Both the position numbers and the translations under genes were made by a program. Positions 10,729-30,728 of a stretch of DNA of 64,000 nt are shown here, in pieces (within the stretch, counting starts at the first letter, position 1; each line of letters starts with the position of its first letter). Location of the stretch: the NCBI GenBank assembly GCA_903930455.1, contig CAIYYT010000002.1, forward strand, positions 6,479 through 70,478. The letters are read 5' to 3'. This DNA comes from an uncultured bacterium. Its GTDB lineage: Bacteria > Zixibacteria > MSB-5A5 > CAIYYT01. Under the pieces are notes generated by a model, which ran no database searches, had not been told where the DNA came from, and saw only the letters and a program-made list of their open reading frames with translations.

Positions 10729-10730
10729 TT

Positions 10731-11462: not shown

Positions 11463-11647
11463 CGCGGCAGATTAACCGATTGTCAATAGCCGCTGTCAAT
11501 CCTCATGGCAATCCCGCTAGTTTCGAAGAAAGGCTTCTCTGAAAACATAACTGACGAATGCAGCAATGTTGCGAACGGAGATTTGCCCAACGCAACAGCA
11601 ATCAGGCGGAAAGACTGGACCTGCCGATTACCTCCGCAAAATGCGGG

Positions 11648-14323
11648 CTATCTCAGCAGCAGCATTTTGTTGGTTTCCGATGCGTTTCCGGCCTTCAACC
11701 GGTAGAAATAGATTCCGCTGGCCACCAAACGCCCCCAATCATCTGTTCCATCCCAAGTGGTTGTATATGAGCCCGCATTCTTCGACTCATCGATAAGCAT
11801 TCGGACCTTTCGGCCGAGATTATTGAAAATAGTTATGGAGACGTGAGAGCGGCCTAGAATGCTATATTCAATTATCGTCGCTGGATTGAAAGGGTTCGGG
11901 TAATTCTGAGAAAGCCTCGCAGATTCTGGCAGCGGCTGCAATCCGTCATCTATCACGTCCGTGGCACTTCCTTTGAACCACCGCGCAAGATGGGCTGACA
12001 CTTTCCCCCCAGCTATTGTAAATCTTCCTCCCGCGATCAGATCATTGCCATAGGTTGTGAGAGCAGAAACGAAACCGTTCATCCCTGAACCGAGCGGTGA
12101 CCAAATAGTGTCATCCCATGCAGCAATATAGCTGGCTGTGACTTCTCCTGCTGACCAAAATTTTCCACCTGCAATCAACCTGTTCCTATGGACCGCTAAT
12201 GCGGAGACATATCCACCCATCCCTGAGCTCAAGGAGGACCAAGAGTTTCCGTCCCAAGCAGCTATGTATCTGACCAGGTTGTTTCCTCCTCCTCCCGCTG
12301 TCTCAAACTCTCCTCCAGCAATCAGCTTGTTGTTGAAGACGGTGAGGGCATTGACAGCGAAGTAATACCCACCCGTCCCTGAGCCAAGTGACGTCCAAGA
12401 AACGCCATCCCAAGCTGCGATGCCGGCTCGAGGAACACCCCCAGCAATGTTGAAATATCCTCCGACAATCAGCTCCCTGTCATAGATCGCCAGGGCACGG
12501 ACTTCGCCATTTGTCCCAGAACTGAGCGGAGACCATGAGCTGCCATCCCAGGAAGCAATAAAACTAGAGGCTACGCCCCCCTCCCACGCAAGCAATCCGC
12601 CCGCGATCAACTTGTCGTTGTAGACCGTGAGAGCATAGACGGGGCCATCCATTCCTGAGCCGAGGGTCGACCAAGAGTTGCCGTCCCAGGCGGCAATGTA
12701 ACCGACGCTGACCCCGCCTGCTGAGTGAAAACTCCCCCCCGCTATCAGCTTCTGATTATAGACAGTGAGAGCATTTACGCTTGGTCGACCATAGTTGGCG
12801 CTCATTCCTGGGCCGAGCGATGACCAGTTAGTGCCGTCCCAAGACGCGATGCAATTGACCCTGATACCTCCCGCCATGATGAACTCTCCCCCTACGATAA
12901 GCTTGTCATCATAAATTGTGAGAGCATAGACTGGACCATCCATTGCAGTCCCTAGCGGCGTCCAAGAAGTACCATCCCATCCAGTAATGTTATGGGTAGC
13001 GAAATCTCCTGCATTCTGGAATTGTCCCCCAGCGACCAATTTGCCGTCATAGGACGTGAGGGCCAACACCATGCCTGAAGTTCCCTGGCCCAGTGGTGAC
13101 CAAGATGTACCATCCCAACTGGCGATGTTCTGGGTCGAGATCCCCCCCGCATTATAGAATTTACCTCCGGCGATCAGTTTGTCATCATAGGACGTGAAGG
13201 CAAGCACCATGTCAGTAGTTCCCTGGCCCAGTGGTGACCAAGATGTACCATCCCATCCAGCAATATTATAGGTAGCGACACCTCCCGCTCCCCAGAACAA
13301 CCCTCCAGCGATTAACTTGTCATGATAAACCGTGAGAGTTCGGACAATACCATAATCGCTTATCCCTGTGCCGAGAGTTGACCAAGACGTGCCATTCCAA
13401 GCAGCGATTCTGCTGGCCGGGTCGCCTCCGGCCTCGGAAAAGTTTCCTCCCGCGATAAGACTACCGTTGTAGACTGTAAGAGCCTCGACAACCGAATTCA
13501 TCCCCGACCCAAGCGGCGACCAAGAACTACCATCCCAGGAAGCAATGTGGCGAACCGAATCGCCGTCAACCACGGAGAAGTTTCCTCCCGCGATAAGCCG
13601 CCCGCTATAGACCGTGAGACTTGCGACGACCGAATTCATCCCCGATCCAAGTGGCAACCAGGAGCTGCCGTCCCAAGCTGCGATGTGGTAAGCCTCAATG
13701 CCTCCTGCATTGGTAAAGAACCCTCCGGCTACTAGCCTATTACCATAGACTGCGAGAGCATAGACCTCGCCGTTCATCCCTGTGCCGAGCGTTGACCAGG
13801 AAGTGCCGTTCCAGGCAGCGATTCTGCCGGCAAAAACGGTGCCTGCCAGAGCGAAGCCACCTGCGACGATCAACTGACCATTGTAAACAGCAAAAGCGTA
13901 AACCAGACTATCGACCCCTTGAAATGATGGTGAAATGCTGTTATCCCAATAGATGTCATCAGGGTGATCGGTTGGCGAAGCAGGAGAAGCAGGGCGAAAC
14001 ACTGGCTGACCTGTGGAATTGTCAAATGCGGAGGTGAAACCTCTCAAGTCCAACGGTCCCTGATAACCTGAACGCTGTGCAGCTTCAAGTTCGAATCGTC
14101 CGTCAGGCTTGAGAAACTCCCCGATGCTTCTGCCGGAGGCCTTGTCTGTGTCATCAGTTGCATTCGCCTTGAAGAACCCGCAGCCATCCCATTGCCCCAT
14201 GTTTTTCGTGAATGCCAGTGGCATCTTTTTGAGTGTTTCAGCGGTTATCTGTGATGCTTGCACTTTGTACGCGAACAATAGGCTACAGAGCCCAAGCGCG
14301 GTGAATAGGATCGCTTTTTTCAA
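11648..14323 (-). CDS. Secreted beta-propeller-type repeat protein (14 or more tandem ~50-aa WDG(T/S)SWSxLGxG...YALxVYxxxLIAGGxF repeats) with a T9SS C-terminal sorting domain. TTG start.
   Basis: N-terminal signal MKKAILFTALGLCSLLFA. Long tandem repeat array. C-terminus LSQNYPNPFNPATIIEYSI...GIYFYRLKAGNASETNKMLLLR (T9SS CTD). TTG start with GGGAGG SD; the N-terminus is shared with 14798..17164. Confidence 0.9.
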   Translation of the reverse strand: MKKAILFTALGLCSLLFAYKVQASQITAETLKKMPLAFTKNMGQWDGCGFFKANATDDTDKASGRSIGEFLKPDGRFELEAAQRSGYQGPLDLRGFTSAFDNSTGQPVFRPASPASPTDHPDDIYWDNSISPSFQGVDSLVYAFAVYNGQLIVAGGFALAGTVFAGRIAAWNGTSWSTLGTGMNGEVYALAVYGNRLVAGGFFTNAGGIEAYHIAAWDGSSWLPLGSGMNSVVASLTVYSGRLIAGGNFSVVDGDSVRHIASWDGSSWSPLGSGMNSVVEALTVYNGSLIAGGNFSEAGGDPASRIAAWNGTSWSTLGTGISDYGIVRTLTVYHDKLIAGGLFWGAGGVATYNIAGWDGTSWSPLGQGTTDMVLAFTSYDDKLIAGGKFYNAGGISTQNIASWDGTSWSPLGQGTSGMVLALTSYDGKLVAGGQFQNAGDFATHNITGWDGTSWTPLGTAMDGPVYALTIYDDKLIVGGEFIMAGGIRVNCIASWDGTNWSSLGPGMSANYGRPSVNALTVYNQKLIAGGSFHSAGGVSVGYIAAWDGNSWSTLGSGMDGPVYALTVYNDKLIAGGLLAWEGGVASSFIASWDGSSWSPLSSGTNGEVRALAIYDRELIVGGYFNIAGGVPRAGIAAWDGVSWTSLGSGTGGYYFAVNALTVFNNKLIAGGEFETAGGGGNNLVRYIAAWDGNSWSSLSSGMGGYVSALAVHRNRLIAGGKFWSAGEVTASYIAAWDDTIWSPLGSGMNGFVSALTTYGNDLIAGGRFTIAGGKVSAHLARWFKGSATDVIDDGLQPLPESARLSQNYPNPFNPATIIEYSILGRSHVSITIFNNLGRKVRMLIDESKNAGSYTTTWDGTDDWGRLVASGIYFYRLKAGNASETNKMLLLR

Positions 14324-14352
14324 AATGCCTCCCGGCGAAGTATGATGACTTA

Positions 14353-14388
14353 CTGAACAAGGATAATTAATATGGCTGAATTGTCAAG
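14353..14388 (-). promoter_or_regulatory. Sigma70-like promoter candidate for the 11648..14323 gene: -35 TTGACA (14388..14383), 17-nt spacer, -10 TATCCT (14365..14360). It is conserved upstream of the paralog at 14798..17164.
   Basis: Hexamers read on the minus strand. The about 85-bp upstream/leader region 14324..14420 is about 90% identical to 17165..17260. Confidence 0.45.
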
Positions 14389-14489
14389 GCAAAGCGTCGC
14401 CGATGTACATCCAAGGTCACCTACCGTAGTCGTCGAGGGGCGTTTAGTGATTGTGGGTGTTGGTTGTGGGGTGAGAAGGGGCCGTTTTG

Positions 14490-14700
14490 GGCTCCTTCCC
14501 TGTGCTGTCGGCTATGCTTCAACGTTCAGATATGCCCCTATTGCGGTTACTTCTCATCTGATGAGCGCCCCAGCCAGTGACATCAGGTCGTAAGTGTCGT
14601 TGTCGTAGTTGAAGATCATGGTTACCACCTGAATTGTCTTGACTATCCAGTGGTAATCAGAGCGAGTATATAAATGTTGTGATTCAGCAGTGGTGACACG
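14490..14700 (-). pseudogene. Hybrid gene fragment. The 5' end resembles the N-terminal region of ORF 10731..11462 (...HLYTRSDYHWIVKTIQVVTMIFNY) and the 3' end resembles the C-terminus of ORF 17342..18721 (DNDTYDLMSLAGALIR*EVTAIGAYLNVEA). An in-frame stop interrupts it.
   Basis: Minus-strand translation of 14490..14700 compared with ...HLYTCADYHWIVKTFQVVTMIFNYVNPYNP (gene at 10731..11462) and ...NNDIYDLTSLARAIIKGEITQAGAYLNVEA* (gene at 17342..18721). Confidence 0.5.
14608..14700. repeat. About 90-bp repeat, copy 2 (see 11278..11370). It abuts the decayed C-terminal fragment of a paralog of 17342..18721.
   Basis: By-eye alignment with 11278..11370. Confidence 0.7.
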
Positions 14701-14797
14701 CCACTGGGTGTGCCGTACAGCTTCGATGACTTGTCAAAAAGAAAAACCGGAAGCCGCCCTCTAAACTCCCGGTCATCAGTTCACTCAGCGTCCTTGC

Positions 14798-17164
14798 TTA
14801 CTTGCACCCCGCACACGGTGCCAGTCCGCCAGAGAATATGTACGCAATCAGATACACCGCGTCCGAAATATCAACCGACCCACTGCAATTGGCGTCTCCG
14901 GATTGATATGGGCAAGGCTCTGGGCCACCCCCAAAGATATAAGCAATCAGATATACAGCGTCTGAGATATCAACGCTCCGACTGCCGTCAGCGTCACCGC
15001 AGAGCTGTGGTTCGCTGAAGGCACCAAACTTGGTCACGCATGCGAGATACGGACCGTTGCCTGCCGACTGGTATGGATTGAGAAGCGGAAAGTCCGCCGA
15101 CCAAGTCATTCCTGTTACATAGGCGTTGCCCCCATTGTCAATTGCGATGTGTGGACAGTAAGCTCCTTCCCCGTCCATGCCACTGCCGCCGAGGTAGGTG
15201 CTGTATTCAAGCGATCTTCCGCATGGTTTCAGTTTGGTCACGAAAAAGTCCCAGTCACCATGATTCATTGACTGGTATGGATTCTGAATCGGAAAGAGAG
15301 ATGACTTTGTTGCTCCCGCCACGTAGGCATTTCCGACATTGTCTACAGCAATCCCAAATCCTTTGTCATAATCTCCTCCACCAAGGTAGGTGCTATATAA
15401 CAGACTGCTGCCAGAACTTGAGAGTTTGCATACAAAAGCATCGCAATAGCCACCTGCAAACGTCCCCTGATAGGGATTCTGAGTCGGGAAGTTGGAAGAC
15501 CATGTTTCCCCAGTCACATAGGCATTTCCGGTGCCATCGACTGCGATGGCGTGTCCTGCATCCGCCTCTCCTCCACCGAGGTAGGTGCTGTATATAAGAC
15601 TGTTCCCGGCACTGCTCAGCTTGGTTACGAAGGCATCGAATGGGCCACCCTGCAATGTTGCTTGCAACGGATTCTGAGTCGGAAAGTCTGTTGATACAGT
15701 CCGCCCCGTAACATAGGCATTATCGTTGGCATCGATCGCAACTCCATAGCCCTCGTCTTCTCCTAATCCGCCGAGATATGTACTGTAAGCCAGTGTGCTA
15801 CCGGTCGGATTCAGTTTCGTGATGAAGGCGTCGACTAAGCCACCACGAAATGTGGATTGGTAGGAATTTTGGGTGGGGAAATCTCCCGCATAGGTAAGGC
15901 CCGTTACAAAGGCGTTGCCGTTGCCATCGACAGCGATCCCATAGCTTTCGTCATAATCACGGCCGCCTAGGTAAGTGCTGTAGACGAGTGCATTACCGTC
16001 CGCATTTAGCTTGGTAACGAAAGCATCATAATAGTGATGATTCAAGGTTGACTGGAACGGATTCTGCGTCGGAAAGTCCATCGAACCAGTACCACCCGTA
16101 ACGTAGGCGTTGCCACCGTTGTCAACTGCGATGCCCCAAGCGAATTCAAAGTCTTCACCACCGAGGTAGGTGCTATATATCAGACTGTTCCCAGTGGTTG
16201 AGAGCTTTGTTACAAAGACGTCCTGGTTGCCATGGTACGTCTGATAGGGATTCTGAGTCGGGAAATCGATCGACTGGGTCCAGCCCGTTACATAAGCATT
16301 ACCGGAGTTGTCTACTGCAATGCTAAAGGCTTCGTCATAGCCGCTCCCACCTAGCAAGGTGCTATAGATAAGCCCAACATTCAGCGATGTTGATTGCATT
16401 CGGCTCTGATCCGTAGTTTCCAAGGTAACCGTATCCTCTGCTTCTCGCGAAAACAGGGCAGAACCTGAACGCTTATCGTTTGTCGGCCCTGCAAAAGCGA
16501 CTATCACGTCTCCCCACTTGGTTTGCACTAAAAGTGTGCCGCCGGAATCGACCAAAGTCTTTTCGGCGCCTTCGAAGGCTATTTTGACTTGTGCCACATC
16601 TGCTCCCGGCTCCACGATATACGCATACGACGCCTGGCCTGTGCCGTCGCCAGAATATCTTATGTCGATACCGGGATAAATGTCTTTGAGCGTGATCGCT
16701 TCGTAGTTGGGCACATCGGTATGCCATTTCGACGGATCATTACCGATGAAGTAGTTGCACTTGTATTCCAATTGCCCCTCGGCTACAACTTCGGGATTCG
16801 AATTCGCCCCGACGAATTTGGCAGTTAGAATCATCTGCTCGACGGAGTCCCTTTCCTGCGAGAATCGATCAGCCGTGTCAAAGGGGCTAGCGGCGTTCGC
16901 CAGACCAGGCACACTAACTGCACCGCCGCGGTCGATCCGTCTTGTGAATTGGTAGGTCACCCCTTCTTTTGTAAACCACATCGTGGCGCCTCCGGCGCTA
17001 GCGCGGAACAAGACGCGTTCGTCCCACTGGCCCATGTTTTTCGTAAAGGCCAAAGGCATCTTTGCGAGTGTCTTAGTGGTAATTTGTGATGCTTGCACTT
17101 GGAACACGAACAATAAGCTACAAAGTCCTAGCGCGAGCGCAGTGAGTAGGATTGCTTTCCTCAA
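14798..17164 (-). CDS. Secreted SBBP (beta-propeller) repeat protein with two C-terminal dockerin-type repeats. It is a paralog of 11648..14323 at its N-terminus only. TTG start.
   Basis: Signal peptide MRKAILLTALALGLCSLLF. Repeated GxGNAYVTGxTxSxDFPTQNPYQ... units (SBBP-like). C-terminus CGDADGSRSVDISDAVYLIAYIFGGG...GDANCSGSVDISDAVYLIAYIFSGG is a duplicated dockerin-type Ca-binding motif. Confidence 0.9.
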   Translation of the reverse strand: MRKAILLTALALGLCSLLFVFQVQASQITTKTLAKMPLAFTKNMGQWDERVLFRASAGGATMWFTKEGVTYQFTRRIDRGGAVSVPGLANAASPFDTADRFSQERDSVEQMILTAKFVGANSNPEVVAEGQLEYKCNYFIGNDPSKWHTDVPNYEAITLKDIYPGIDIRYSGDGTGQASYAYIVEPGADVAQVKIAFEGAEKTLVDSGGTLLVQTKWGDVIVAFAGPTNDKRSGSALFSREAEDTVTLETTDQSRMQSTSLNVGLIYSTLLGGSGYDEAFSIAVDNSGNAYVTGWTQSIDFPTQNPYQTYHGNQDVFVTKLSTTGNSLIYSTYLGGEDFEFAWGIAVDNGGNAYVTGGTGSMDFPTQNPFQSTLNHHYYDAFVTKLNADGNALVYSTYLGGRDYDESYGIAVDGNGNAFVTGLTYAGDFPTQNSYQSTFRGGLVDAFITKLNPTGSTLAYSTYLGGLGEDEGYGVAIDANDNAYVTGRTVSTDFPTQNPLQATLQGGPFDAFVTKLSSAGNSLIYSTYLGGGEADAGHAIAVDGTGNAYVTGETWSSNFPTQNPYQGTFAGGYCDAFVCKLSSSGSSLLYSTYLGGGDYDKGFGIAVDNVGNAYVAGATKSSLFPIQNPYQSMNHGDWDFFVTKLKPCGRSLEYSTYLGGSGMDGEGAYCPHIAIDNGGNAYVTGMTWSADFPLLNPYQSAGNGPYLACVTKFGAFSEPQLCGDADGSRSVDISDAVYLIAYIFGGGPEPCPYQSGDANCSGSVDISDAVYLIAYIFSGGLAPCAGCK

Positions 17165-17193
17165 GGTGCCTCCCGGCGAAGTATGATGATTTG

Positions 17194-17228
17194 CTGAATA
17201 AGGATAATCAATATGGCTGAATTGTCAA
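17194..17228 (-). promoter_or_regulatory. Promoter candidate paralogous to 14353..14388: -35 TTGACA (17228..17223), 16-nt spacer, -10 TATCCT (17206..17201).
   Basis: Same hexamers in the conserved leader region. Confidence 0.4.
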
Positions 17229-17341
17229 GGCAAAGCGTCGCCACCGTGCCCTCCCTCATGGATCGCTTGCCGTGCTTTCCTAGAGGTGTTTGCTGTGGCG
17301 GGGAGAAGGGGCCCAAAATGGCCCCTTCTTTGTGCTGTGGG

Positions 17342-18721
17342 TTATGCTTCGACATTCAGATATGCCCCTGCTTGTGTGATTTCTCCTTTGATGATGGCTC
17401 TTGCGAGTGAGGTTAGGTCGTAAATGTCGTTGTTGTGGCTGGCTTCGAGTATTGTGTTTCCTCGTAGGTGTTTGGTGGTGTACATGGCGAGGATGAGCTC
17501 TTTTAGGTCGCAGTCGTTGATCACGTTGAATGGGTGTGATTCGCTTAGGCCTGCTGTGGTGTTTATGTAGTGGTTGTGGTTGAAGTAGTCGTCCAGTTCT
17601 GGTTCTTTTTCTCGGTAGACTTTGGCTGCCAGCTTGGCAAGCTTTTCCAACAATTCCTCTTTTCTGCCGGTCATGGCGACTTCGTGGTTTTTGAGCATCT
17701 CTTTGATCATCTCTCCCGAGGCGTTTACTCGTATGAATCCGCCTATGGCGTAGGTGTGTACTCGGTGTTCGGTGAAGGCGGCGTTGGCAGTGCTTGCCTC
17801 TTTTGGGGCGAGGTAGTTGAGGTTGGGGAAGCCGATTTGGAAGTTGCCTTTCTCGATCATCCTTTCGGCTGTTTCGATGTTGACGGTGAAGCAGTATCTG
17901 CCTTTGTCGTGTCGCCAGCGTTCGGCTATTTGTCTTGCTTGTTCTCTGATGGCGTGGCGGGGAACCAGAGATGGTAGCATTCGGATGGTTTCGCCTTTTC
18001 GTGTGCAGGTGTAGATAATGCTCTCCGAGTAGGCGATGTTGCGGTAGCCGTCTGAGCGCATCTGGAAGTGGCTAATTGATTCAGTCAGTTTGAGTTTTCC
18101 TTGGTCGTCGGCGATCTGCCCGAGTACGCTCGCCTGCCTGAAGTTTGTAATCGGCAAGGCCTGACTGATCAGGACGCTTTCTTCATCTTGGAAGTCTTCC
18201 AGGGTGAGTATCTGGCTGAGGTCGTAGCTGTTGATGTCGTTGTAGCCAGAAAGCTTGATCTGCTTGCTCTTGCCCTTCAGGAAGTCCCTGAGCGAGTTGA
18301 AGTCACTGTAAATCCTCGAAAGGAGACTGTAAACTGTTTGGTGAGTCCAGTTGGCTACGAGAGTCCTCTTGGCAATAGCGACCAGCTGCAAGTAGCCGAG
18401 GCCGTCGACGAAATACAAATGGTCGCGGATGTCGGCCAGCATCCTCTCAAACATGGTTCCTTCCCGATAATAAGTTCGTTCAGTTGAGTAATTGATGTCG
18501 TGGCTGTAGCCCAGCTCTTTGAGCTCCGTAATCAATTGATCTGGCGCGTTTAGTCTTTGCAGGGTGGTTTCGATGATGTGGCTTGAGTGGTCGCTGCAGC
18601 CCCAGGGGTGGATGCCTCTTAGCAGGACGTCGGCAAGTGAAACTTCCACGATCTTGAAGGTTAGGCGTTTGAATTCGGGGACTTGCTCGTCTGGTATTAG
18701 TGACAGCTGGATAGTTTGCAT
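17342..18721 (-). CDS. Hypothetical 459-aa protein with a SAP-like motif near its C-terminus. It is the third gene of the vWA-MoxR cluster and overlaps the MoxR gene by 25 nt.
   Basis: ATG start. The segment IKEMLKNHEVAMTGRKEELLEKLAKLAAKV resembles a SAP DNA-binding motif. No other recognisable domain. A decayed paralogous C-terminal fragment lies at about 14490..14607. Confidence 0.7.
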   Translation of the reverse strand: MQTIQLSLIPDEQVPEFKRLTFKIVEVSLADVLLRGIHPWGCSDHSSHIIETTLQRLNAPDQLITELKELGYSHDINYSTERTYYREGTMFERMLADIRDHLYFVDGLGYLQLVAIAKRTLVANWTHQTVYSLLSRIYSDFNSLRDFLKGKSKQIKLSGYNDINSYDLSQILTLEDFQDEESVLISQALPITNFRQASVLGQIADDQGKLKLTESISHFQMRSDGYRNIAYSESIIYTCTRKGETIRMLPSLVPRHAIREQARQIAERWRHDKGRYCFTVNIETAERMIEKGNFQIGFPNLNYLAPKEASTANAAFTEHRVHTYAIGGFIRVNASGEMIKEMLKNHEVAMTGRKEELLEKLAKLAAKVYREKEPELDDYFNHNHYINTTAGLSESHPFNVINDCDLKELILAMYTTKHLRGNTILEASHNNDIYDLTSLARAIIKGEITQAGAYLNVEA

Positions 18722-20211
18722 ACAACTTCACCTCCATTGGCGGTTGATTGGTGATGGTTGGAGATTAGTAATTCGAAGGTCTCGAGGTCCTTCTCGATTG
18801 CTTCTCGGGTCTGCTCGATGTCATTGGGATCAAGGTTTTGCTTTCTGGCGAGCTTGGCAACATGGCTGTAGGCAACGATCTTGGCCAAGTCAGACTGCTG
18901 ATCCAGCAACCCCTCTACCTCCTCGACAAATTCGATGCATTCCCCTTGAAGGTTCGGGATACACTTGCTGGATAGCTTCTCGCCGGAGACCTTGCGGCTC
19001 AAACCCTCCAAAAGCTCCCTGGGAACTGTGCCGGGACGGCGTGCCTCTACTTGCAAAGCCGTATAGGCCAGCAGAGTGATGTCTTGCTCGCCATTGATTA
19101 AGTCATTCCAGGCCTTGGAAGCCGCAAACTCTCCCAGGTTTGATGTGAGTAGGATTTCGGCTTTGCGCATCATGTCTTTGGTCGTGAAGAGCTCGTAGAT
19201 GGTGTTGACCTTTTCCATATTCGAACCCTCAGCGAAAAAGCTACTCAACAGGTCGAAGCAGATCTCCATCTTGTGAACTGCCTCTTCTTTCTTGAGTGAT
19301 TCATCGTTCAAACCGACTGGAATGCTGGATTGGACAACGTAGCGAGCTGACTTGACAAAGTCTGGTATCGTTGTGCTGAGCACTTCGGACTTGGCCAATT
19401 CGATGGCCCGATTGGAGAGGATGTTTCGGTAGATAAAGCCCAGCCTTCTACCATCAAGTGAGATGTCGCCTTTGGATTCCCTCATCAGGAGATCGGCAAA
19501 GCGCGCCAAGAACAAGGAAAGCGTTGAGTACTGCTCTCTTAGGGTGTTGAAGTGTCTTGCTGCGGTGTGGAACATCTGGGTCATCTTCTGACCGATTTCC
19601 TTCACTTCCTGCTTGTCAACTGTGCCACTGGTTTGTCCGTTGTTCCAGACTGAGATGGCAGGAGCATCATCGCCGTTGATGTGTCCGGTGACTTTGATGC
19701 GGTCTGCTTCCTCCATCTGCAAGACATCCGGAGGATAAACAAACAAGGCAAATCGGCCGATCAGTGCTTCGTCGAGTGCCTGGGTGGCTGAGTAGTTCAT
19801 GGGGTTCATGGCTGCCCACACCCATTTGACCTTGGTCTCAAATCCCATGATCTTTCGAGAACGGATAATTTCGAGCCATTTGCTCTGAAGTTCGGGGACG
19901 GCGCGATTGAGTTCGTCTATCAGGACTAGTTCCTTGTCCCAGATGGTGACGTTGCTCGGGACATATTCTACGACTCCCTGTTTCAATTTTTCGATGTTGG
20001 GGAAGCCAAGTATGTCCTCGAACATGCATTTGCTTGCGTCGTAGACGAGTGACTTGCGGTTGAGTGCTTGGCCGATTTTGTTGGCCACGTGGGTCTTTGC
20101 GCAACCATGATTGCCAATCAGTAGTAGCGGGTCGCCTGTCAAGAGCGATGACAGGATTAGGTTTTCGTCTTCGTCTTTCCAGCCGTAGATGCCGAGTGTT
20201 TCGAGTATCAT
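18697..20211 (-). CDS. MoxR-like AAA+ ATPase (AAA_5 family) with a C-terminal extension.
   Basis: Walker A LIGNHGCAKTHV. Walker B with NRA: LVLIDELNRA. Sensor/Arg finger AMNPMNYSATQALDEALIGRF. ATG start with AGGAGA SD. Confidence 0.85.
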   Translation of the reverse strand: MILETLGIYGWKDEDENLILSSLLTGDPLLLIGNHGCAKTHVANKIGQALNRKSLVYDASKCMFEDILGFPNIEKLKQGVVEYVPSNVTIWDKELVLIDELNRAVPELQSKWLEIIRSRKIMGFETKVKWVWAAMNPMNYSATQALDEALIGRFALFVYPPDVLQMEEADRIKVTGHINGDDAPAISVWNNGQTSGTVDKQEVKEIGQKMTQMFHTAARHFNTLREQYSTLSLFLARFADLLMRESKGDISLDGRRLGFIYRNILSNRAIELAKSEVLSTTIPDFVKSARYVVQSSIPVGLNDESLKKEEAVHKMEICFDLLSSFFAEGSNMEKVNTIYELFTTKDMMRKAEILLTSNLGEFAASKAWNDLINGEQDITLLAYTALQVEARRPGTVPRELLEGLSRKVSGEKLSSKCIPNLQGECIEFVEEVEGLLDQQSDLAKIVAYSHVAKLARKQNLDPNDIEQTREAIEKDLETFELLISNHHQSTANGGEVVCKLSSCH

Positions 20212-20456
20212 TGTTTTTTCTCCTATCTTCTTTGCCCCTTTGAGGGCAATGAAAAAGGGGAGATCCTCGCTGATGAGGGTTCTCCCCGTGGTTTAAGTTT
20301 GTTGATGATTGTTAGCTGTTGTTGAATTGAGATGAGTGGAGCTATGGTTTGTGGATGATGTCCCCTTTTCCGTTGCGATGTCGCGCCCCAGTCATGGAGG
20401 AACAGCTGTTAGTGGGGCGGACAGTGATTTGTGGTTTCTTCCTGGTTTTCTCCTTT

Positions 20457-21752
20457 CTATTCGCAGACGTCTGAGAGGTTGACGATGTCGCCGAATTTGG
20501 CAAAGTCCTCGCAGGTGGTTGTGCCGTCGAAGAGGATCGTCAAGGTAACGAGCCCCAAGGCTTTAAGTTGTTTTGACAATTCTTCTGACATGTCGGCGTA
20601 ACCATCGGTAATGATGATTGCCTTTTCGAATCGTCTTTCGAGTATTGATTGGGCTATGCAGTTGAAGTCGGTGCCGTAACTTGTCCTGATTTTGCCTTTG
20701 ATCAGATCTTGCATGGTGGTTTCGACTACTATGTTCGAAAACAGGAACAGCGAGGTGACACTGTTTTTCAGCTTGGATAGGACTCCGATGATATTTGGCA
20801 GGTAATCGTTTACGCTTCCAGAGACGTCAAGGTAGATCGCCAGACCCTTTTCTTCAGAGGTTGGTTTGGATGTGTGGTTGTGGAAGTACCCCGGATAAAA
20901 CCCCGAAGCCAACAGTACCAAGTCGCGTTTGGATGGATACAATGGAATGGGTGAAACTCCCACCCGCTGAACCCGAAAGTACTCCTTGAATCGGTCAAGT
21001 TTGCGCTTGGTCAGAAACTTTTGTAGCAGTACTTTCTTTATTGATAGGTGTGTCTTCAACGCCTCCATAAACAGATCAAGCAGTTCAAGGCTGAATCCGG
21101 CGTTTCTTCCTCCTTTGCCGGCGACGCTGCGCTTCAGGTCTTCGGCGATTTTGGAGAGCAGTTCGTTTGGAAAAGAGGTCTCGTGACTCGATGGGTTTCC
21201 GTCGTGGGAGTGGCTGCCGATCAAGACAACAGTTGATAGTCGTTCGCTTTGGGTCAGGATCTTCAAAGTCTGGATCAACTCTCCAGTCGTGAAATGATCG
21301 TGTTCGTCGTTTTGACTGTATAGCCTTTCGTAGACCTTGCTGTACTTGCCTCGCGACATTTCACTCAAGGGCCGCAGTAGCCCAGGCAGTCCTCGATCCG
21401 GATAAAACTTGCGGAACAGACTGCCGTTGCGGGAATAGTCGGTGTATACTTCGCTGATGACAGCATTGATGATTGCATCAGCAGCAATGTTCTCCAGCTC
21501 ACCATTCTCATAGATGAAGTGGCAGAACATTGGATGCAGCAGCTCGTGAAAGACCAGGCTGAACAAGTCTTCTTTACATGTGATATGCTTGTTGATGAAC
21601 CCTGGATTGTACGACAGTTTGCCGTCAACGGTGATCGCCGCCGTCGGAATCCTGTCATCTTCAACGGTTTCGTTAACGAAGCCGGCGACGAAGCTGTCAA
21701 AGCCGAGAGCATCTTTGAGTACTTCTCTCACGGTTTCGAGATTGATTTTCAT
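20457..21752 (-). CDS. DUF2201-type protein: N-terminal putative metallopeptidase-like domain (HExxH) plus a C-terminal vWA domain. This is the vWA partner of the MoxR ATPase.
   Basis: PTAAITVDGKLSYNPGFI...LVFHELLHPMFCHF...NIAADAIINAVI fits the DUF2201_N pattern (AATDGxxLYYNP...HExLH...WNxAxDxAIN). C-terminal IYLDVSGSV is a MIDAS DxSxS motif, followed by ...AIIITDGYAD. ATG start with AGGAGGT SD. Confidence 0.85.
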   Translation of the reverse strand: MKINLETVREVLKDALGFDSFVAGFVNETVEDDRIPTAAITVDGKLSYNPGFINKHITCKEDLFSLVFHELLHPMFCHFIYENGELENIAADAIINAVISEVYTDYSRNGSLFRKFYPDRGLPGLLRPLSEMSRGKYSKVYERLYSQNDEHDHFTTGELIQTLKILTQSERLSTVVLIGSHSHDGNPSSHETSFPNELLSKIAEDLKRSVAGKGGRNAGFSLELLDLFMEALKTHLSIKKVLLQKFLTKRKLDRFKEYFRVQRVGVSPIPLYPSKRDLVLLASGFYPGYFHNHTSKPTSEEKGLAIYLDVSGSVNDYLPNIIGVLSKLKNSVTSLFLFSNIVVETTMQDLIKGKIRTSYGTDFNCIAQSILERRFEKAIIITDGYADMSEELSKQLKALGLVTLTILFDGTTTCEDFAKFGDIVNLSDVCE

Positions 21753-22232
21753 GGTTACCTCCTTTCAAGGCACAAAATGAAAAATGCCCGATGGTCTGCT
21801 TGAGCAATCCGTCAGGCGGTTGATTTGCGTTCTTCTCGATGAATTCATCGCGAAGAGCCATTGATGAGACTTCTCAGAAAAGACTAAAACGCACTCCGAG
21901 AGCACAACGAAACAGGACACAGTGGAGCGAGATATCTACTTAGCGCCGCCTTTGCTTTCGCTCGTCGCCCAGCGACGAATACAAGGGCAACACGGTGGAA
22001 ACTGAAGTTCAATTCACTCTCACCAAGACAGGCAAAGGTGAAGACGATTGTTAGTTCTCATTTAGTCTGAATATCAGATCAACTCTTGCGAGGATCACAA
22101 ACCAGATTGTTACTATCACCCAGTGGGAATGAGCCAATGCTTATAAATCTTTCGCTTATTAAAACTTAGCTCCATTTGAAAAATTAACAAACCCGAACAA
22201 ACAGAAGCTCCAAGAGCCGGCAAGCAAACGAT

Positions 22233-22325
22233 GAGGAAAAAGGAAAAGAAGGAGAAGGAAGAAAAGAGAAAAGGGAAAAGAGGGAGAGAAAAAAGAGAGA
22301 AGGAGAAAGGGAGAAAAGGAAAAAA
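22233..22325 (+). repeat. 93-nt perfect homopurine (GA-only) tract on the plus strand. Purine-rich bias extends over about 22228..22360. Low-complexity, potential triplex/H-DNA-forming element.
   Basis: No C or T between 22233 and 22325. The ORFs called across it (22116..22376, 22159..22404) translate to F/S/L low-complexity strings and are judged spurious. Confidence 0.9.
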
Positions 22326-22419
22326 CGAGAAACGAAGAAAATGAACTAAAAGCAACGAAGCAACGGACCACATCAAAACAATACATCCAGAACTGAATCA
22401 ACAAAAAGGAATCTAGGTC

Positions 22420-22704
22420 CTAAATCCAAGGAACGATCCGAACGTTCCACCACTTGATCGAAGTGCGAATCTCAACCACCATCACCCTTTCCTCCAACGA
22501 CTTCACCCTTCGACACCCCGGATCCTTCCAAACCACCGAATAATCTCCGACAAGAGGACAACGACCAACCCACTTGTGAATCTGCCAGGAAAACACCCTA
22601 TCGACCTTCCGAGGTGCCTGCGCCTCCAAAATCGCCGCCTTGATCACCTGACTGTAATCAATCTCATACATACCAAATCTTACCTTCTGTTTGTATCCTT
22701 CCAT
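22420..22704 (-). CDS. Small hypothetical protein (94 aa) with a weak RelE/ParE-like motif (VGDYSVVW). Possible toxin-like gene in the mobile-element remnant.
   Basis: ORF only. LVGDYSVVWK resembles the RelE VGDYRLIY core. No clear antitoxin partner. Confidence 0.3.
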   Translation of the reverse strand: MEGYKQKVRFGMYEIDYSQVIKAAILEAQAPRKVDRVFSWQIHKWVGRCPLVGDYSVVWKDPGCRRVKSLEERVMVVEIRTSIKWWNVRIVPWI

Positions 22705-22734
22705 CTTAAGCCTCCAGGAGCTCTCACGTGAACT

Positions 22735-22765
22735 CCGTTTTTTTTCAATTTTTCAAAAAAAACGG
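22735..22765. other. Perfect hairpin CCGTTTTTTTT-caatttttc-AAAAAAAACGG (11-bp stem, 9-nt loop) between ORFs 22420..22704 and 22753..23043.
   Basis: Read directly from the sequence. Confidence 0.6.
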
Positions 22766-23009
22766 GGTTCACCAATCACACGGAGACCGGCTTGCTGCAA
22801 AGGACGGTAGGCGACCCCGAAGGGGGAAAGCTTTACTAAATAGTTCGCGATGAGCGAATCTATTAGATAAAGCTTTAGCCGCCGTCCGAGCAGCAAGCAA
22901 CGCCGATTGAACTTCACTGTCCCACCCTCGTCATCTCCTGTCATACCTGTATACCTACTATATTCGAGTTTCGTTACAAATGCCAAGTCGTTGGCCGTTA
23001 GGGAATTCG

Positions 23010-23085
23010 GAGTAACAAAATTGTAACATAATGGTAATCCCAAAAGGCAATTATGTTACCTTTTTCGGCCAATTATGTTACTGCT
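23010..23085. repeat. Iteron-like cluster. The motif GTAACA(A/T)AAT and its complement ATTATGTTAC occur 4-5 times as direct and inverted copies immediately downstream of the replication-relaxation gene.
   Basis: gtaacaaaat-tgtaacataat (23013..23032). aattatgttac at 23049..23059 and 23071..23081. Confidence 0.55.
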
Positions 23086-24004
23086 TTTCAGAAGCTATAT
23101 TATCGGGTTCGGGCTCTTTGTTGAGGGGTAATTGATATTCGAAGGACTGGAAAACTCCGAGAATGGAATACAATCCAGACTTGGTGTCACCCCCCTTTGT
23201 CCAGATCCGAGCTGAGATACCGGACTTAAATAGGGAGTTATGGTCGGCAAGCCAGATGAAGTCGGTTGCGGGAACGGATCTGACCAGTCGGCAGAGCTGG
23301 AGGGAGCGAGCCTCAGTATTTGCCACGAACAGCGTCCGGAATCCCCTAAAAAGTGCCGGCAGTATCTCTTCAAACTGTTTGTAGGATCCGGATCGGAACA
23401 CCTGTTGATAACTGAGAATCTTTTTCCGGATGTCTGTGGTCTTGGTGTCGGAGCTTGACAAAGTCTCGGTGCCCATGTCGACTTCGAGAAAAAAGAGCAA
23501 CGACTTGCCCTGCTTCGTATCGGTTATCGAAAAGATGCCGTCGGGGATGATGCTTGTCGCGATCCGGGAGTCCGGCAAACTGATTTCGCAGCGACCACGA
23601 TCGATCGAGGAAGATAGGAAATCGACTTTCAGGTACGAACGTTGCCTGACCAGCTGAGCCAGGTGAATCCAAACCCAATTGACGAGCAGCTGATGGCCGA
23701 GACTTCTGAAATCGAGATTCGTGATCTGATCGCCGGCTGTGCCGGCATCAATTTCCCCGGAACCTTTCAAAACCTTCAGGCCCAGGGAAGTGAGGCAAAC
23801 CAGGGATTCCGGTCTGCCTGCAGAACTGTCGCTTGGCCGCTCGGCCATCGTAAGGAGCCCGACTGCTCTAAGTTCGCGAACTTTCTTGCGTGCCATCTGC
23901 TGGCTGGGAAAGATCAGCAGGGTCAATTGGGACGTCGTCAGAATGCGATACTCCGCCACAGTCTTGAGTATCTCGATGTCTCTCGGTGTTAGGTCTGCTC
24001 TCAC
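23078..24004 (-). CDS. Replication-relaxation (Replic_Relax) family protein, a plasmid/ICE-associated HTH protein. GTG start.
   Basis: N-terminus MRADLTPRDIEILKTVAEYRILTTSQLTLLIFPS...VRELRAVGLL is the characteristic wHTH of the Replic_Relax family. Size about 308 aa. Confidence 0.75.
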   Translation of the reverse strand: MRADLTPRDIEILKTVAEYRILTTSQLTLLIFPSQQMARKKVRELRAVGLLTMAERPSDSSAGRPESLVCLTSLGLKVLKGSGEIDAGTAGDQITNLDFRSLGHQLLVNWVWIHLAQLVRQRSYLKVDFLSSSIDRGRCEISLPDSRIATSIIPDGIFSITDTKQGKSLLFFLEVDMGTETLSSSDTKTTDIRKKILSYQQVFRSGSYKQFEEILPALFRGFRTLFVANTEARSLQLCRLVRSVPATDFIWLADHNSLFKSGISARIWTKGGDTKSGLYSILGVFQSFEYQLPLNKEPEPDNIASEKQ

Positions 24005-26947: not shown

Positions 26948-28498
26948 ATGCTATGCAACAAGACGATTCAATCAATGAGTAGCACACTTTTCAGAATAGG
27001 TAGAAACGTTTTTTCGAACTGGGTCGGTTATGTCGTTAACATAGTCGTCTCATTCTTTCTAGCGCCATTTATGGTGCACAGCTTGGGGAACGCTGGTTAC
27101 GGAATCTGGGTGCTGGTCGGCTCACTGACCGGTTACTTGGGGGTCCTCGATATGGGACTGCGCCCGGCAATTGTAAAGTTCGTGGCCCGTTACAAGTCGC
27201 TCGGTGACGATCTGATGGTAAATCGGATTGTCAACACGACTCTGATAATTCTCTTATTTGCCGCTGCGATAGTGTTCCTGGCGAGTCTAGTGTTGTCATT
27301 CTTCTCAGTCGGTATCTTCAAAATTCCTGACGAGTTTCATGGCCAGTTTCAGTTGATCATAATCATAGTCGGTCTGAACCTTGCCGCCAGCTTTCCATTC
27401 GCCATTTTTAGCGCCTTATTGGCCGCATTTGAACGGTTCGATCTTGGCAATGCCATTCAAATTTGCGTATTTCTGGTTAGGGCAATATTTCTCGTCGTCT
27501 TCCTCAAGCTCGGGGGAGGGCTTGTTGCGGTCGGAGTGATTGCACTGGCCGCAGGCGTGACCGAATCTCTTTGGAGAGCGCGGCTTTCCCTCAAGCTCTT
27601 TCCGAAACTCGAGATCAATCGGCACTTGGCCGACCGGGATACGTTTAAGTTGATCGCTGCCTTTAGCAGCTACGCATTCATCATGAACATTGCTTCGCGG
27701 CTTTCGTTTCAGACCGACGCGATTGTGATTGGCGCCATGCTTTCGACCGAAGCTATCACCAGCTTCTCCATCGGCTCGACCATGGTCGACTACCTGCTTA
27801 CCTTGATATCGTACATGTCGACCACCTTACTGCCCGTAGTTTCGGCACTCGAAGCCCAGCAGAATTATGAGAAACTGCGCCAACTGTTGATTATCGGCAC
27901 GAAATACTGCGTGGCGATCATTCTCCCCGTCAGCTTCACCTACCTGGTGCTTGGGGAAACCTTTATCAGTCTCTGGATGGGGCAGCAATACGGTCCGACT
28001 TCAGCCAAGGTTCTTGCTATTCTGACGTGCGGGTATTTCGGATTCCTCTCTCAGTTTGTGGCTAACGTAATCTTCGTCGGATTGGGAAAACTGAAGTACC
28101 TCGCATATCTCAATATTGCTCTCGCGTTCGTGAACCTGGGGCTCAGCATTATTCTTGTGAAGTGGCTCGGTATTTACGGTTCCGCACTGGGCACGGCCAT
28201 CCCACTAATCATCAGCGGTTCGATTCTCTATCCCATATACATTTGTCGAACCGTCAAGCTTGGTTTCCTACGATATGTTAGCAAATCCTATATTCGTCCC
28301 CTGCTGGCGTCGCTCCCGTTTTTGTCTCTCATCTTGCTTTGTCATTACCTGATCGATATCAACTCTTTTGGGCGCTTCATAACGGTCGTTGGAACCGCTT
28401 GTATAGTTCATGCTGTCGCGTCGTTTTATGGCGTTCTGGAATCAAACCACCGAAGCAGTATTTCACACAAAGTCGGGAATTTGCTGTCGATGCGATGA
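26948..28498 (+). CDS. Polysaccharide biosynthesis protein / Wzx-type oligosaccharide flippase (MOP superfamily).
   Basis: About 12-14 predicted TM helices. Polysacc_synt-like N-terminal motif GNAGYGIWVLVGSLTGYLGVLDMGL...VKFVARY. It is the only plus-strand gene in an EPS context. Confidence 0.85.
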   Translation: MLCNKTIQSMSSTLFRIGRNVFSNWVGYVVNIVVSFFLAPFMVHSLGNAGYGIWVLVGSLTGYLGVLDMGLRPAIVKFVARYKSLGDDLMVNRIVNTTLIILLFAAAIVFLASLVLSFFSVGIFKIPDEFHGQFQLIIIIVGLNLAASFPFAIFSALLAAFERFDLGNAIQICVFLVRAIFLVVFLKLGGGLVAVGVIALAAGVTESLWRARLSLKLFPKLEINRHLADRDTFKLIAAFSSYAFIMNIASRLSFQTDAIVIGAMLSTEAITSFSIGSTMVDYLLTLISYMSTTLLPVVSALEAQQNYEKLRQLLIIGTKYCVAIILPVSFTYLVLGETFISLWMGQQYGPTSAKVLAILTCGYFGFLSQFVANVIFVGLGKLKYLAYLNIALAFVNLGLSIILVKWLGIYGSALGTAIPLIISGSILYPIYICRTVKLGFLRYVSKSYIRPLLASLPFLSLILLCHYLIDINSFGRFITVVGTACIVHAVASFYGVLESNHRSSISHKVGNLLSMR

Positions 28499-28715
28499 TA
28501 CAACCAGTATCGAGATGCGAGCTGCAAGAGAATTCGGTGTTTTGCACCCATGAAAGCAGACTTTGATCCCGAAGAAGGGGTATAATTCCTGTTTCGAAAA
28601 ATCCTTCAGGAATCGACGCACGGCGGCTGTTATGACAAAAAGCAAAGGCAGGTGTTCATGATTAAGCAATTCTCGCATGATCTGGGTTGAAGTTGGAATC
28701 TCAGCGACACTGAGG

Positions 28716-30728
28716 TCAGTTCTTAGTGGTTTCATGGCCGTTGCAGATTGTTGTAAAATCGCGCCATACATTGAAATTGGTCACGCGATGGATCTCTCTT
28801 TCATTGAATTTCTCGATAAACTGGTCGACTAGCATTTGGGTCGAGAGTATCCCCATAAAAGCCATATTGTCCCTAAATGACATCTGCCCTTGCGATTGTC
28901 TTAGGCACTTCTCATGAAGCTTGCCGACCATCGTAGGATTAAATACGCCAGCCTCTTTCACCTTTTCTTCCGACAGCAATTCCTTGACATAACCGGGTGC
29001 CTGTTTCTGTGTAAAGCACCTTGAATCGGGCGCCATGTATGGCTGCTTGGGGCGTTTAAGAATTGCCTCGGGTAACGCTCCATGCATGGCCTTCTTTAGT
29101 ACCCATTTTTCTTTCAGTCCAAAGAGTTTGTAGTGTGGCGGAATCCTTGTCGCCAACTCGATCACACGGTGATCGAGGAACGGATACCGTCCTTCCACGG
29201 CATTGGCGGCTGCCATACGATCACCCTGCGAAGAGAGCAGATACCCTGACAGCAGTGATTTTGCTTCGATGAATTGCGCGCGAGAGACATGATGCCATTG
29301 AGCAAATCGCAATGGCAGCATATGCGCAAATGCATTCATAGAGTCGCTTGCCGCTGACTTAGACTTGAAATCAGCATCATAGAAATCTTTGATTCGAGAA
29401 GTCGCCTTGATTCGTGGTATATGCGAGAAATAGTAGCGATCAGTCTCGGTCAATCCCTCTTTGTAGAATTCCTCGAGGAAATAATTGAAGCGGACTTTAC
29501 TCAATGGTAATGTGGGGTACAGTCGCTTAAGAAGCAGCGGCCGAGATCGTGAGTTGGGATTCTTCGACCAGAAATATCTGATCTTTGTTTCTTTGAATAT
29601 GTCATAGCCGCCAAATATTTCGTCCGATCCTTCACCAGTCAAGACTACCTTGAACCCGGCATCGTTTACCAATCGTGAGAGTAGATACATCGGCGCAGGC
29701 GCGGTTCGCAATATCGGACGCTCGGTGTGCCAGATAACATTCGGGAAACAGGCTGCGATATCTTCATAATTGCACTGTACCTGGTGGTGAGTCGTGCCCA
29801 ATTGCTTTGCCATCAGCCTCTGATTGCTTGACTCATCAAAGGCGCTGTCGCCAAAAACGATTGAGAATGATTCCAATGGATTTGAGGTAAAACTCCGCAC
29901 CAGCGATGCTATGGCAGAAGAATCCAACCCGCCCGAAAGGTACACGCCTACTGGTACATCCGCCCGCAGACGCAACCGAATCGAATCTACTAACAGGGCG
30001 TGTACCTCTTCGGCCCAGGACCCGACGCTGCGACTATCATCGTAATGGTCGGGATACTCCATCGACCAGTAGCGCGCTGTAGAGATTCCTATCTCGCTGA
30101 TTTCCATATACGATCCCGATTCCAGTTCAGCGATTCCACCAAAGGCAGTTTTTGGCGGTGCGCAGGTCCACCAGGTAAAGACTTGATCGAGCCCTTCAGC
30201 GTCTAGTTCTCGCTTGATTGAATGGTCGGCGAAGAGTGCTTTGATCTCCGATGCAAAGTAGAATCGTCCATTTTGAACCGTATAAAACAAGGGCCGTTTA
30301 CCCATCCGATCTCGGGCAATGAACAGCGTGCGCTTATTCATATCATAAATGGCAAACGAAAACTGACCGTTGAAATGCTGAACGCACTCCCGGTCCCACT
30401 GCTCATAGGCGTGGACAATTACTTCCGTATCGGAATGCGTGCGAAATCTATGTCCCAGTCCTTCGAGCACGGGGCGTAACTCAACGTAGTTGAATATTTC
30501 TCCGTTGAAGGCTATCCAAACGGTCTCATCTTCATTGCACAATGGCTGCTGGCCTGTCGACAAGTCAATAATCGATAGGCGGGCATGTCCGAGTACGCAT
30601 TTGTTATCCAGAAAGGCACCGAATTCATCCGGCCCACGGTGACGGATCAAGGAAATCATCTTGACGATTAGATCTTTGTCCGGCGGGCGCGTGCCTTCGA
30701 GTTGAAAGTATCCAGCTATTCCGCACAT
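28716..30728 (-). CDS. asnB: Asparagine synthase (glutamine-hydrolysing) family amidotransferase, of the kind found in EPS/exosortase-type loci.
   Basis: N-terminal MCGIAGYF (Ntn Cys). The central SGGLDSS PP-loop is within the protein. 670 aa. Confidence 0.9.
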   Translation of the reverse strand: MCGIAGYFQLEGTRPPDKDLIVKMISLIRHRGPDEFGAFLDNKCVLGHARLSIIDLSTGQQPLCNEDETVWIAFNGEIFNYVELRPVLEGLGHRFRTHSDTEVIVHAYEQWDRECVQHFNGQFSFAIYDMNKRTLFIARDRMGKRPLFYTVQNGRFYFASEIKALFADHSIKRELDAEGLDQVFTWWTCAPPKTAFGGIAELESGSYMEISEIGISTARYWSMEYPDHYDDSRSVGSWAEEVHALLVDSIRLRLRADVPVGVYLSGGLDSSAIASLVRSFTSNPLESFSIVFGDSAFDESSNQRLMAKQLGTTHHQVQCNYEDIAACFPNVIWHTERPILRTAPAPMYLLSRLVNDAGFKVVLTGEGSDEIFGGYDIFKETKIRYFWSKNPNSRSRPLLLKRLYPTLPLSKVRFNYFLEEFYKEGLTETDRYYFSHIPRIKATSRIKDFYDADFKSKSAASDSMNAFAHMLPLRFAQWHHVSRAQFIEAKSLLSGYLLSSQGDRMAAANAVEGRYPFLDHRVIELATRIPPHYKLFGLKEKWVLKKAMHGALPEAILKRPKQPYMAPDSRCFTQKQAPGYVKELLSEEKVKEAGVFNPTMVGKLHEKCLRQSQGQMSFRDNMAFMGILSTQMLVDQFIEKFNEREIHRVTNFNVWRDFTTICNGHETTKN

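Follow-up and report, generated by a model that had tools for sequence, protein, structure and literature searches.

The CTCTT repeats of neisserial opa genes exemplify the homopurine–homopyrimidine mirror repeats that form H-DNA. Phase-variable repeats are represented by (GAA)n upstream of Mycoplasma gallisepticum vlhA and by the CT repeats in outer-membrane protein genes of Helicobacter. Polypurine tracts serve as RNase H-resistant primers or as R-loop origins, as in the retroviral PPT and in ColE1-type priming. The intrastrand triplex motifs of Escherichia coli form a different class with conserved sequences (PMC4666352). In the passages of PMC12360218 drawn on here, rut sites are described as C>G-biased and weakly structured, with an optimum of 60–90 nt, and the N-terminal insertions of Bacteroidota Rho are thought to aid Rut recognition. 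The same passages cite a report that a pure pyrimidine sequence is sufficient for Rho-dependent termination (Guerin et al. 1998). According to a survey of prokaryotic genomes, most phyla have purine and pyrimidine runs that are “normally represented”; the runs modeled there started at 15 or 30 nt (PMC4060949), so that a perfect tract of 93–160 nt lies far outside its coverage.

The tract studied here occupies positions 22233–22325 of the window, by which we mean the whole stretch of 64,000 nucleotides that was analyzed. All 93 plus-strand nucleotides are purines (58 A and 35 G). The run is bounded by T22232 and C22326, and the T-free stretch of the plus strand reaches 22341. The longest other purine or pyrimidine runs in the window measure 19 and 15 nt. 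At the G+C content of the window (49.4%), a first-order purine/pyrimidine model gives an expectation of ∼1e-23 runs of 93 nt per 64 kb. According to the ORF list the tract is intergenic, with a 94-aa ORF on one side and a vWA-like gene on the other. An earlier reading of the sequence alone had described a perfect, intergenic 93-nt purine/pyrimidine tract, highly non-random at about 50% G+C and located between the vWA–MoxR cluster and the Replic_Relax/iteron module. The run statistics and the gene map bear this description out.

All genes that flank the tract lie on the minus strand; therefore, the sense RNA would consist of C and U. Listed in sense-strand order, the features around the tract are as follows.

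23078–24004, minus strand: Replic_Relax gene (Pfam E 3e-22)
23011–23082: iteron-like GTAACATAATTG repeats in direct and inverted copies, between the Replic_Relax stop codon and the hairpin
22986–22957, sense direction: match to a sigma-70-like promoter
22790–22898, minus strand: three-way-junction hairpin element, with its core at 22810–22880
22728–22772, minus strand: U8/A8-armed hairpin immediately before the ribosome-binding site of the 94-aa ORF
22420–22704, minus strand: 94-aa ORF with a GGAGG ribosome-binding site, kept in relatives
22416–22448, minus strand: weak hairpin over the stop codon of the 94-aa ORF with a T-rich tail (dG ∼ −8 kcal/mol), a candidate weak intrinsic terminator
22155–22419, minus strand: inter-module spacer of 265 nt that includes the tract (T 53%, C 24%, G 15%, A 8–9%)
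22233–22325, minus strand: the tract, 58 T and 35 C on the sense strand and no other base, with homologous pure alleles in relatives
22140–22154, minus strand: near-invariant motif CGAAAGATTTATAAG, the 5′ boundary of the vWA–MoxR module and a candidate promoter or RNA 5′ end
21753–22139, minus strand: conserved structured leader of ∼400 nt, starting at near-invariant CGAAAGATTTATAA (21753–22154 including the motif)
20457–21752, minus strand: vWA/DUF2201-like gene (431 aa), the first of the downstream operon
18697–20211, minus strand: gene for a MoxR-type AAA+ ATPase

Distances from the tract are thus ∼80 nt to the leader start downstream of it, 480 nt to the start codon, and ∼700 nt to the iterons. 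GTAACA-type repeats like the iteron-like ones of the window are also present in L018, L020, and L028. The 94-aa ORF has no match in Pfam or PADLOC, homologs were found in two clusters only, and the AF2 model of its product (pLDDT 41) is unusable. The vWA-like protein is encoded on many public contigs. The MoxR-type ATPase carries an unusual P-loop (GNHGCAKT); it scores 25.9 bits against the model for β-propeller ternary systems. Because this is below the 27-bit cutoff, the description of those systems (eLife 2020, PMC7159879) serves as background only.

Beyond MoxR, the island encodes large β-propeller and T9SS-tailed secreted proteins and a HerA-like ATPase. Upstream of or between the large β-propeller/T9SS-tailed genes are paralogous DNA repeats (14187–14603 with 17022–17433, 76%; 11272–11363 with 14600–14691, 90%). 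The island as a whole (∼1.5–25.5 kb) is set between polysaccharide-biosynthesis genes (223–1224 and 26948–30728) for a sugar transferase, a flippase, and an asparagine-synthase-like protein. Relatives in GTDB genomes carry the label uncultured Ignavibacteria. Because the upstream context differs in two of the relatives (L002 and L008), the island or its Replic_Relax end is mobile or recombining. Several assignments were tried and rejected: a defense system, because PADLOC matched only the HerA-like ATPase on the island; a viral origin, because the hairpin core is absent from IMG/VR, which held one distant relative of the vWA-like protein (36%); and a plasmid origin, because tblastn searches of PLSDB with the vWA-like and Replic_Relax proteins gave no match. 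A scan for tRNA and tmRNA genes found none, and therefore no attachment site of the tRNA type.

The tract is reproduced base for base in five contigs from other samples (L002, L094, L095, L096, and L097), assembled by two assemblers (scaffold and k141 contigs). This count excludes L001 and L093, which match the window at 100% identity along 21 kb and are probably its source. L002 shares 99.86% identity with the window over 10457–22904 and is unrelated beyond 22904, so that the tract recurs in a different genomic context; differences of 1–2 nt in spacing in L094 and L096 fall outside the tract. Low-complexity sequence of this sort may be suspected of arising in assembly or sequencing, and several contigs indeed end at or beside such tracts (L090, L098, and L088/89/96/97). 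However, given the identical allele in other samples and the homologous alleles at the same locus in other projects, there is next to no chance that the tract is an artefact, which settles a doubt raised by the sequence-only reading. Such tracts are an obstacle to assembly, not a product of it.

T and C follow one another in a random-like order in every allele (runs tests, z −0.9 to 2.0). Autocorrelation revealed no periodicity in the alleles, internal direct repeats are not above the level of shuffles, and TRF returned only 64–84% matches of mixed periods on the tract. A microsatellite or minisatellite was rejected for want of periodicity and internal repeats. The tract had also been called mirror-repeat-rich, and this does not hold: the best mirror repeat of the window allele scores 13, against a shuffle mean of 12.6 ± 2.3 (82/200 shuffles at least as good), and those of six further alleles are likewise no better than same-composition shuffles. 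Mirror symmetry at the level of chance gives no sign of selection for canonical H-DNA. Taken with the lack of periodicity and repeats, it indicates that the constraint would act on composition. An alphabet of C and U rules out canonical self-pairing in the tract RNA; in a fold of 1.2 kb, 42/93 tract bases are paired, only with distant G-rich coding sequence.

Pure tracts are restricted to the subclade of the window (vWA-like proteins 88–100% identical), where they occupy the same position and are 100% C/T on the sense strand. The pure alleles have the following lengths.

Window: 93 nt
L011: 134 nt
L088/L089: 138 nt
L008: 148 nt
L009/L038: 160 nt

Gap-aware alignment shows that these five alleles are homologous (z 1.6–6.1 against shuffles, weakest for the window against L008 and L009), and the notion of “scrambled” tract interiors, taken from a first MAFFT alignment, was dropped. 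Allele pairs differ by many indels and by 7–20 C↔T changes, without a single purine. The flanks are ∼10% diverged with a transition/transversion ratio of ∼1.4, and transversions have hit 7.5% of flank sites one or more times on the five-allele tree. Between 7 and 12 transversions are thus predicted for tracts of 93–160 nt, against 0 observed (P ∼1e-3 to 6e-6). The tract is real, non-coding, and conserved in position; its purity is maintained against the transversion rate of the flanks, and it is patternless. Across the alleles compared, the conserved property is a restriction to pyrimidines, with about two T per C. The tract resembles a non-coding boundary that has been maintained, and it may serve to stop transcription.

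Outside this set the pure tract is lacking from L100 (vWA 90%), L005–L007, and L092; L007 (vWA 84%) has merely CT runs of 19 and 26 nt at the tract position. Together with the limitation to a young clade, these cases show that the tract is dispensable for the vWA–MoxR module. The architecture of Replic_Relax-like end, hairpin, small ORF, motif, leader, and vWA-like gene is shared by L018, L020, L028, and L071, whose vWA-like proteins are just 50–60% identical; this architecture is old, and the tract is young. At the spacer position, relatives show A-free stretches of 69–180 nt; the A-free or A-poor spacers of L020 and L099 are T/G-rich, and that of L010 is composed of T, C, and G. Long T-rich, A-poor spacers (258–330 nt) go together with weak hairpins after the small ORF, whereas in L018 and L028 strong GC hairpins (−20 and −23 kcal/mol) take up the short spacers of 51–56 nt.

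A rival reading is a neutral origin, in which a pyrimidine-rich seed in the T-rich spacer grew by replication slippage and its purity reflects a local mutational bias toward indels and transitions only. The CT runs of L007 resemble such a seed state, the differences between alleles are mainly indels, and the tract is lineage-restricted and dispensable. However, the absence of direct repeats and periodicity above shuffles leaves no trace of recent duplication or of slippage units, and substitutions are about as frequent in the tract as in the flanks, yet transversions are missing. Transitions alone are unable to create a purine-free sequence. Moreover, the same 93-nt allele in five contigs from other samples shows that the tract is not hypermutable. 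Neutral growth strikes us as unlikely, if still a serious contender. A hypermutable contingency locus was rejected because the allele is identical across samples, as compared in consensus assemblies.

Because stop codons are impossible in a pure tract, long ORFs run through it on both strands, and gene callers gave an 85-aa sense ORF or a 68-aa opposite-strand ORF in some contigs. The tract might accordingly encode a sense uORF of F, L, S, and P only that ends in the leader (22116–22376, minus strand) or an antisense K/E/R/G peptide starting from the ATG at 22231 (plus strand). In the window, L008, L009, and L010, the frame running into the leader closes with RKIYK and then seven more residues ahead of the stop (RKIYKHWLIPTG/E; RKIYKPAGIPTG in L010), and the plus-strand ATG abuts the tract in all alleles. 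The reading frames are not conserved, however. Anchor-to-anchor lengths are not congruent modulo 3 (93 and 138 versus 134, 152, and 164), alleles that share the 3′ frame differ in the N-terminal (5′-side) frame, L011 has an in-frame stop, and the nucleotides in common with L010 are read there in a different frame. Variable sites are distributed 6/5/10 over the codon positions, which is not significant, and neither start is preceded by a Shine–Dalgarno sequence. The glycine and arginine codons never use the pyrimidine-containing synonyms that a protein-level constraint would permit. With frame and ORF ends not conserved, a low-complexity coding region, which the sequence-only reading had named as a possible objection, was rejected on both strands; we regard translation of the tract as very improbable.

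The same reading had placed the tract near a likely mobile-element junction, and module junctions are indeed close by: homology breaks at ∼22904 (L002) and just upstream of 22154, ∼580 and ∼80 nt away from the tract. Homology to the window starts at the motif in L092 (82%), L100 (90%), and L006 and later in L005, which puts the tract ∼80 nt outside the recurrent module boundary. The breaks fall at the conserved motif and in the hairpin region rather than within the tract, and a junction or attachment site at the tract itself was rejected on account of these distances.

Proximity to such breaks is one of the points in favor of a role at the level of DNA, along the lines first proposed for the tract. 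In such a role a triplex (H-DNA), or an R-loop with purine-rich RNA, would act as a polar barrier to replication or transcription or as a recombination hotspot at the module junction. The purine/pyrimidine duplex is perfect and uninterrupted, contig ends cluster at the tracts, and triplex motifs have been linked to local instability in bacteria (PMC4666352). Further, a second tract described below forms an inverted pair with the first in L002-type elements, as expected of paired polar barriers, and a 26-nt inverted match between the two suggests exchange. On the other hand, mirror symmetry, the defining requirement of H-DNA, is at chance in seven alleles, the breakpoints fall at the motif and the hairpin rather than at the tract, and the allele is stable across samples. 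No sigma-70-like promoter for a GA RNA was found on the plus strand in 21600–23200. We consider a barrier or hotspot of this kind rather doubtful.

The second tract is A/G on the sense strand and 95–96 nt long; on one side it has a different Replic_Relax allele, on the other the hairpin. The elements that carry it are L002, L088/89, L096/97, and L010; the sequence is pure in L010 and contains one C in the others. Its coordinates are as follows.

L002: 8605–8700
L010: 2242–2336
L088: 25–120
L096: 25–120

The hairpin/small-ORF module of L002-type elements is thus enclosed by two tracts of opposite orientation. What both tract types have in common is that synthesis away from the central module yields C/U and synthesis toward it A/G. 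The two tracts of L002 have a 26-nt perfect inverted match in common (0/1000 shuffles).

Such an arrangement might allow the CU tract to pair with purine-rich RNA, either with the inverted GA tract of the same transcript across a loop of ∼730 nt in L002-type elements or, in the manner of an anti-SD, with Shine–Dalgarno sequences. For L002 the predicted GA/CU duplex reaches −92.7 kcal/mol, and the MFE fold of a 945-nt L002 RNA pairs 81/96 GA bases with the CU tract; the leader, moreover, itself uses a CCUC anti-SD. However, any GA/CU pair would do nearly as well (shuffles −83 ± 4.5 kcal/mol), and the duplex of L088 is no better than its own shuffles. Neither the window-type element nor L008 has a GA partner tract, and L010 has the GA tract but no pure CU tract. 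With the partners not both present everywhere, pairing cannot be a general role, and we judge it improbable as the explanation of the tract.

The modules on either side of the spacer are themselves structured. The core of the three-way-junction hairpin is 93–97% identical in loci whose vWA-like proteins are just 50–60% identical. The region 22720–22910, which includes the U8/A8 hairpin, has a fold z-score of −8, and the basal stem of the three-way-junction element displays some covariation. The U8/A8 hairpin is kept by compensatory changes in L018, L028, and L071. Rfam gave no match at gathering thresholds in the whole window and only chance-level matches in a permissive scan of 21700–23100. 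The three-way-junction hairpin may represent either an ncRNA not yet described or, at the DNA level, an origin or operator. Two contigs (L003 and L004) terminate within it.

For the leader, the alignment predicts two long-range helices and a terminator-like hairpin. The first predicted helix joins an anti-SD CCUC (within 22077–22096) to the SD of the vWA-like gene (within 21750–21765) and is accompanied by two compensatory changes; the second is a predicted long-range pairing of GAGUUGAUC/GAUGAAUUC. The terminator-like hairpin (21779–21817) is located just before the vWA ribosome-binding site. By these predictions the leader looks like an undescribed cis-regulatory RNA. In L100, which has neither the tract nor the small ORF, a truncated duplicate (1880–1950) is situated ∼570 nt upstream of the intact leader; it consists of the terminator hairpin of the leader together with the ribosome-binding site and ∼30 nt from the beginning of the vWA-like gene, and it is evidence of rearrangement at the junction.

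Our tentative preference is for an insulator: as RNA, the tract would be a spacer free of structure and of G that keeps two units apart, probably through the loading of Rho. It would then be a composition-constrained spacer between two co-directional transcription units, of which the upstream one comprises the structured hairpin element and the 94-aa ORF and the downstream one the vWA–MoxR leader and operon. The expected transcript would be a random copolymer of 93–160 nt with ∼2/3 U and ∼1/3 C and with maximal C>G skew. A polymerase not stopped by the weak hairpin terminator behind the small ORF would produce this naked, untranslated CU tract, which could load Rho or could destabilize the elongation complex through weak rU/rC:dA/dG hybrids. 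Transcription would stop ahead of the leader's start, so that the leader would always be made with its proper 5′ end, and a terminator at this place would protect a fold built on long-range pairing. What we infer here is the direction in which the region is transcribed and the mechanism of termination or of Rho action.

Several observations are consistent with insulation by the tract. None of the 7–12 predicted transversions occurred and five alleles are purine-free, and a constraint on composition only would suit a structure-free RNA that loads a protein, not a sequence-specific site. Over its 93 nt the sense tract is 38% C, contains 35 YC dinucleotides, and has no G (0%); it corresponds to rut sites in this C>G skew and in its low degree of secondary structure. 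It is oriented in line with all flanking genes, and the frames speak against its translation. The hairpin over the stop codon remains weak (−7 to −11 kcal/mol) across the long-spacer loci, and an equivalent is visible in L007 and L010, whereas the short spacers carry the strong hairpins, as would fit long spacers that bring about termination in another way; this contrast rests on few independent lineages. The tract ends ∼80 nt upstream of the invariant leader start, where an insulator would be useful, and with the inverted second tract of L002-type elements transcripts leaving the module either way would be C/U.

Other observations fit an insulator loading Rho less well. The depletion of A is not explained, since Rho does not require its absence, and the wider family has A-depletion and T-richness in common, not C>G skew. 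As the spacers of L020 and L099 are T/G-rich and that of L010 is T/C/G, the ancestral spacer cannot have had the role of a rut site. Furthermore, the pure tract is lineage-restricted (vWA at least 88% identical) and dispensable, and the GA-type tract tolerates one C interruption.

More broadly, pure two-letter tracts might represent a selected class of bacterial boundary element, C/U on the RNA that leaves a regulatory module and A/G on the opposite strand, defined by composition, free to drift in sequence and length, and possibly arranged in inverted pairs. Here, they would bracket the hairpin and small-ORF module of a Replic_Relax/vWA–MoxR island in Ignavibacteria and act as natural “super-rut” terminators or as polar polymerase barriers. 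We offer this generalization as a speculative one that is unlikely to hold. The purity of diverged alleles, kept while sequence and length drift, is evidence for a composition-only constraint. Should the tract prove to be a natural insulator that loads Rho, it would illustrate with unusual clarity the minimum that a rut site needs, and synthetic biology could use it as a portable part; should its action lie in the DNA, bacteria would here offer a natural example of a purine/pyrimidine polymerase barrier. The tract also points to an undescribed, strongly conserved hairpin element and to the long structured MoxR–vWA leader, which may match or exceed it in interest.

Compared with known systems, the tract resembles polypurine primers in offering a purine-only strand beside a replication-type gene (Replic_Relax) and iteron-like repeats, but there is no reverse transcriptase, a promoter for a purine-rich RNA was not found, and the iterons are ∼700 nt off. 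With H-DNA-forming repeats it shares the perfect purine/pyrimidine composition, a location near variable or recombining DNA, and the possible blockage of polymerases; unlike them, it has mirror symmetry at chance, lacks a repeat unit, is non-coding, and is stable between samples. Like phase-variable repeats, the tract is homopurine/homopyrimidine, stands near the start of a transcription unit, and varies in length between lineages, but it has no short tandem unit and shows no length polymorphism among same-lineage contigs, which are consensus assemblies. Natural rut sites differ from the tract in being not pure and rarely so long, and related spacers in the family are T/G-rich and would not be rut-like. 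The tract itself, however, parallels rut sites and the artificial polypyrimidine terminator in that it is C-rich, G-free, unstructured, at least 60–90 nt long, presumably untranslated, and situated downstream of an ORF.
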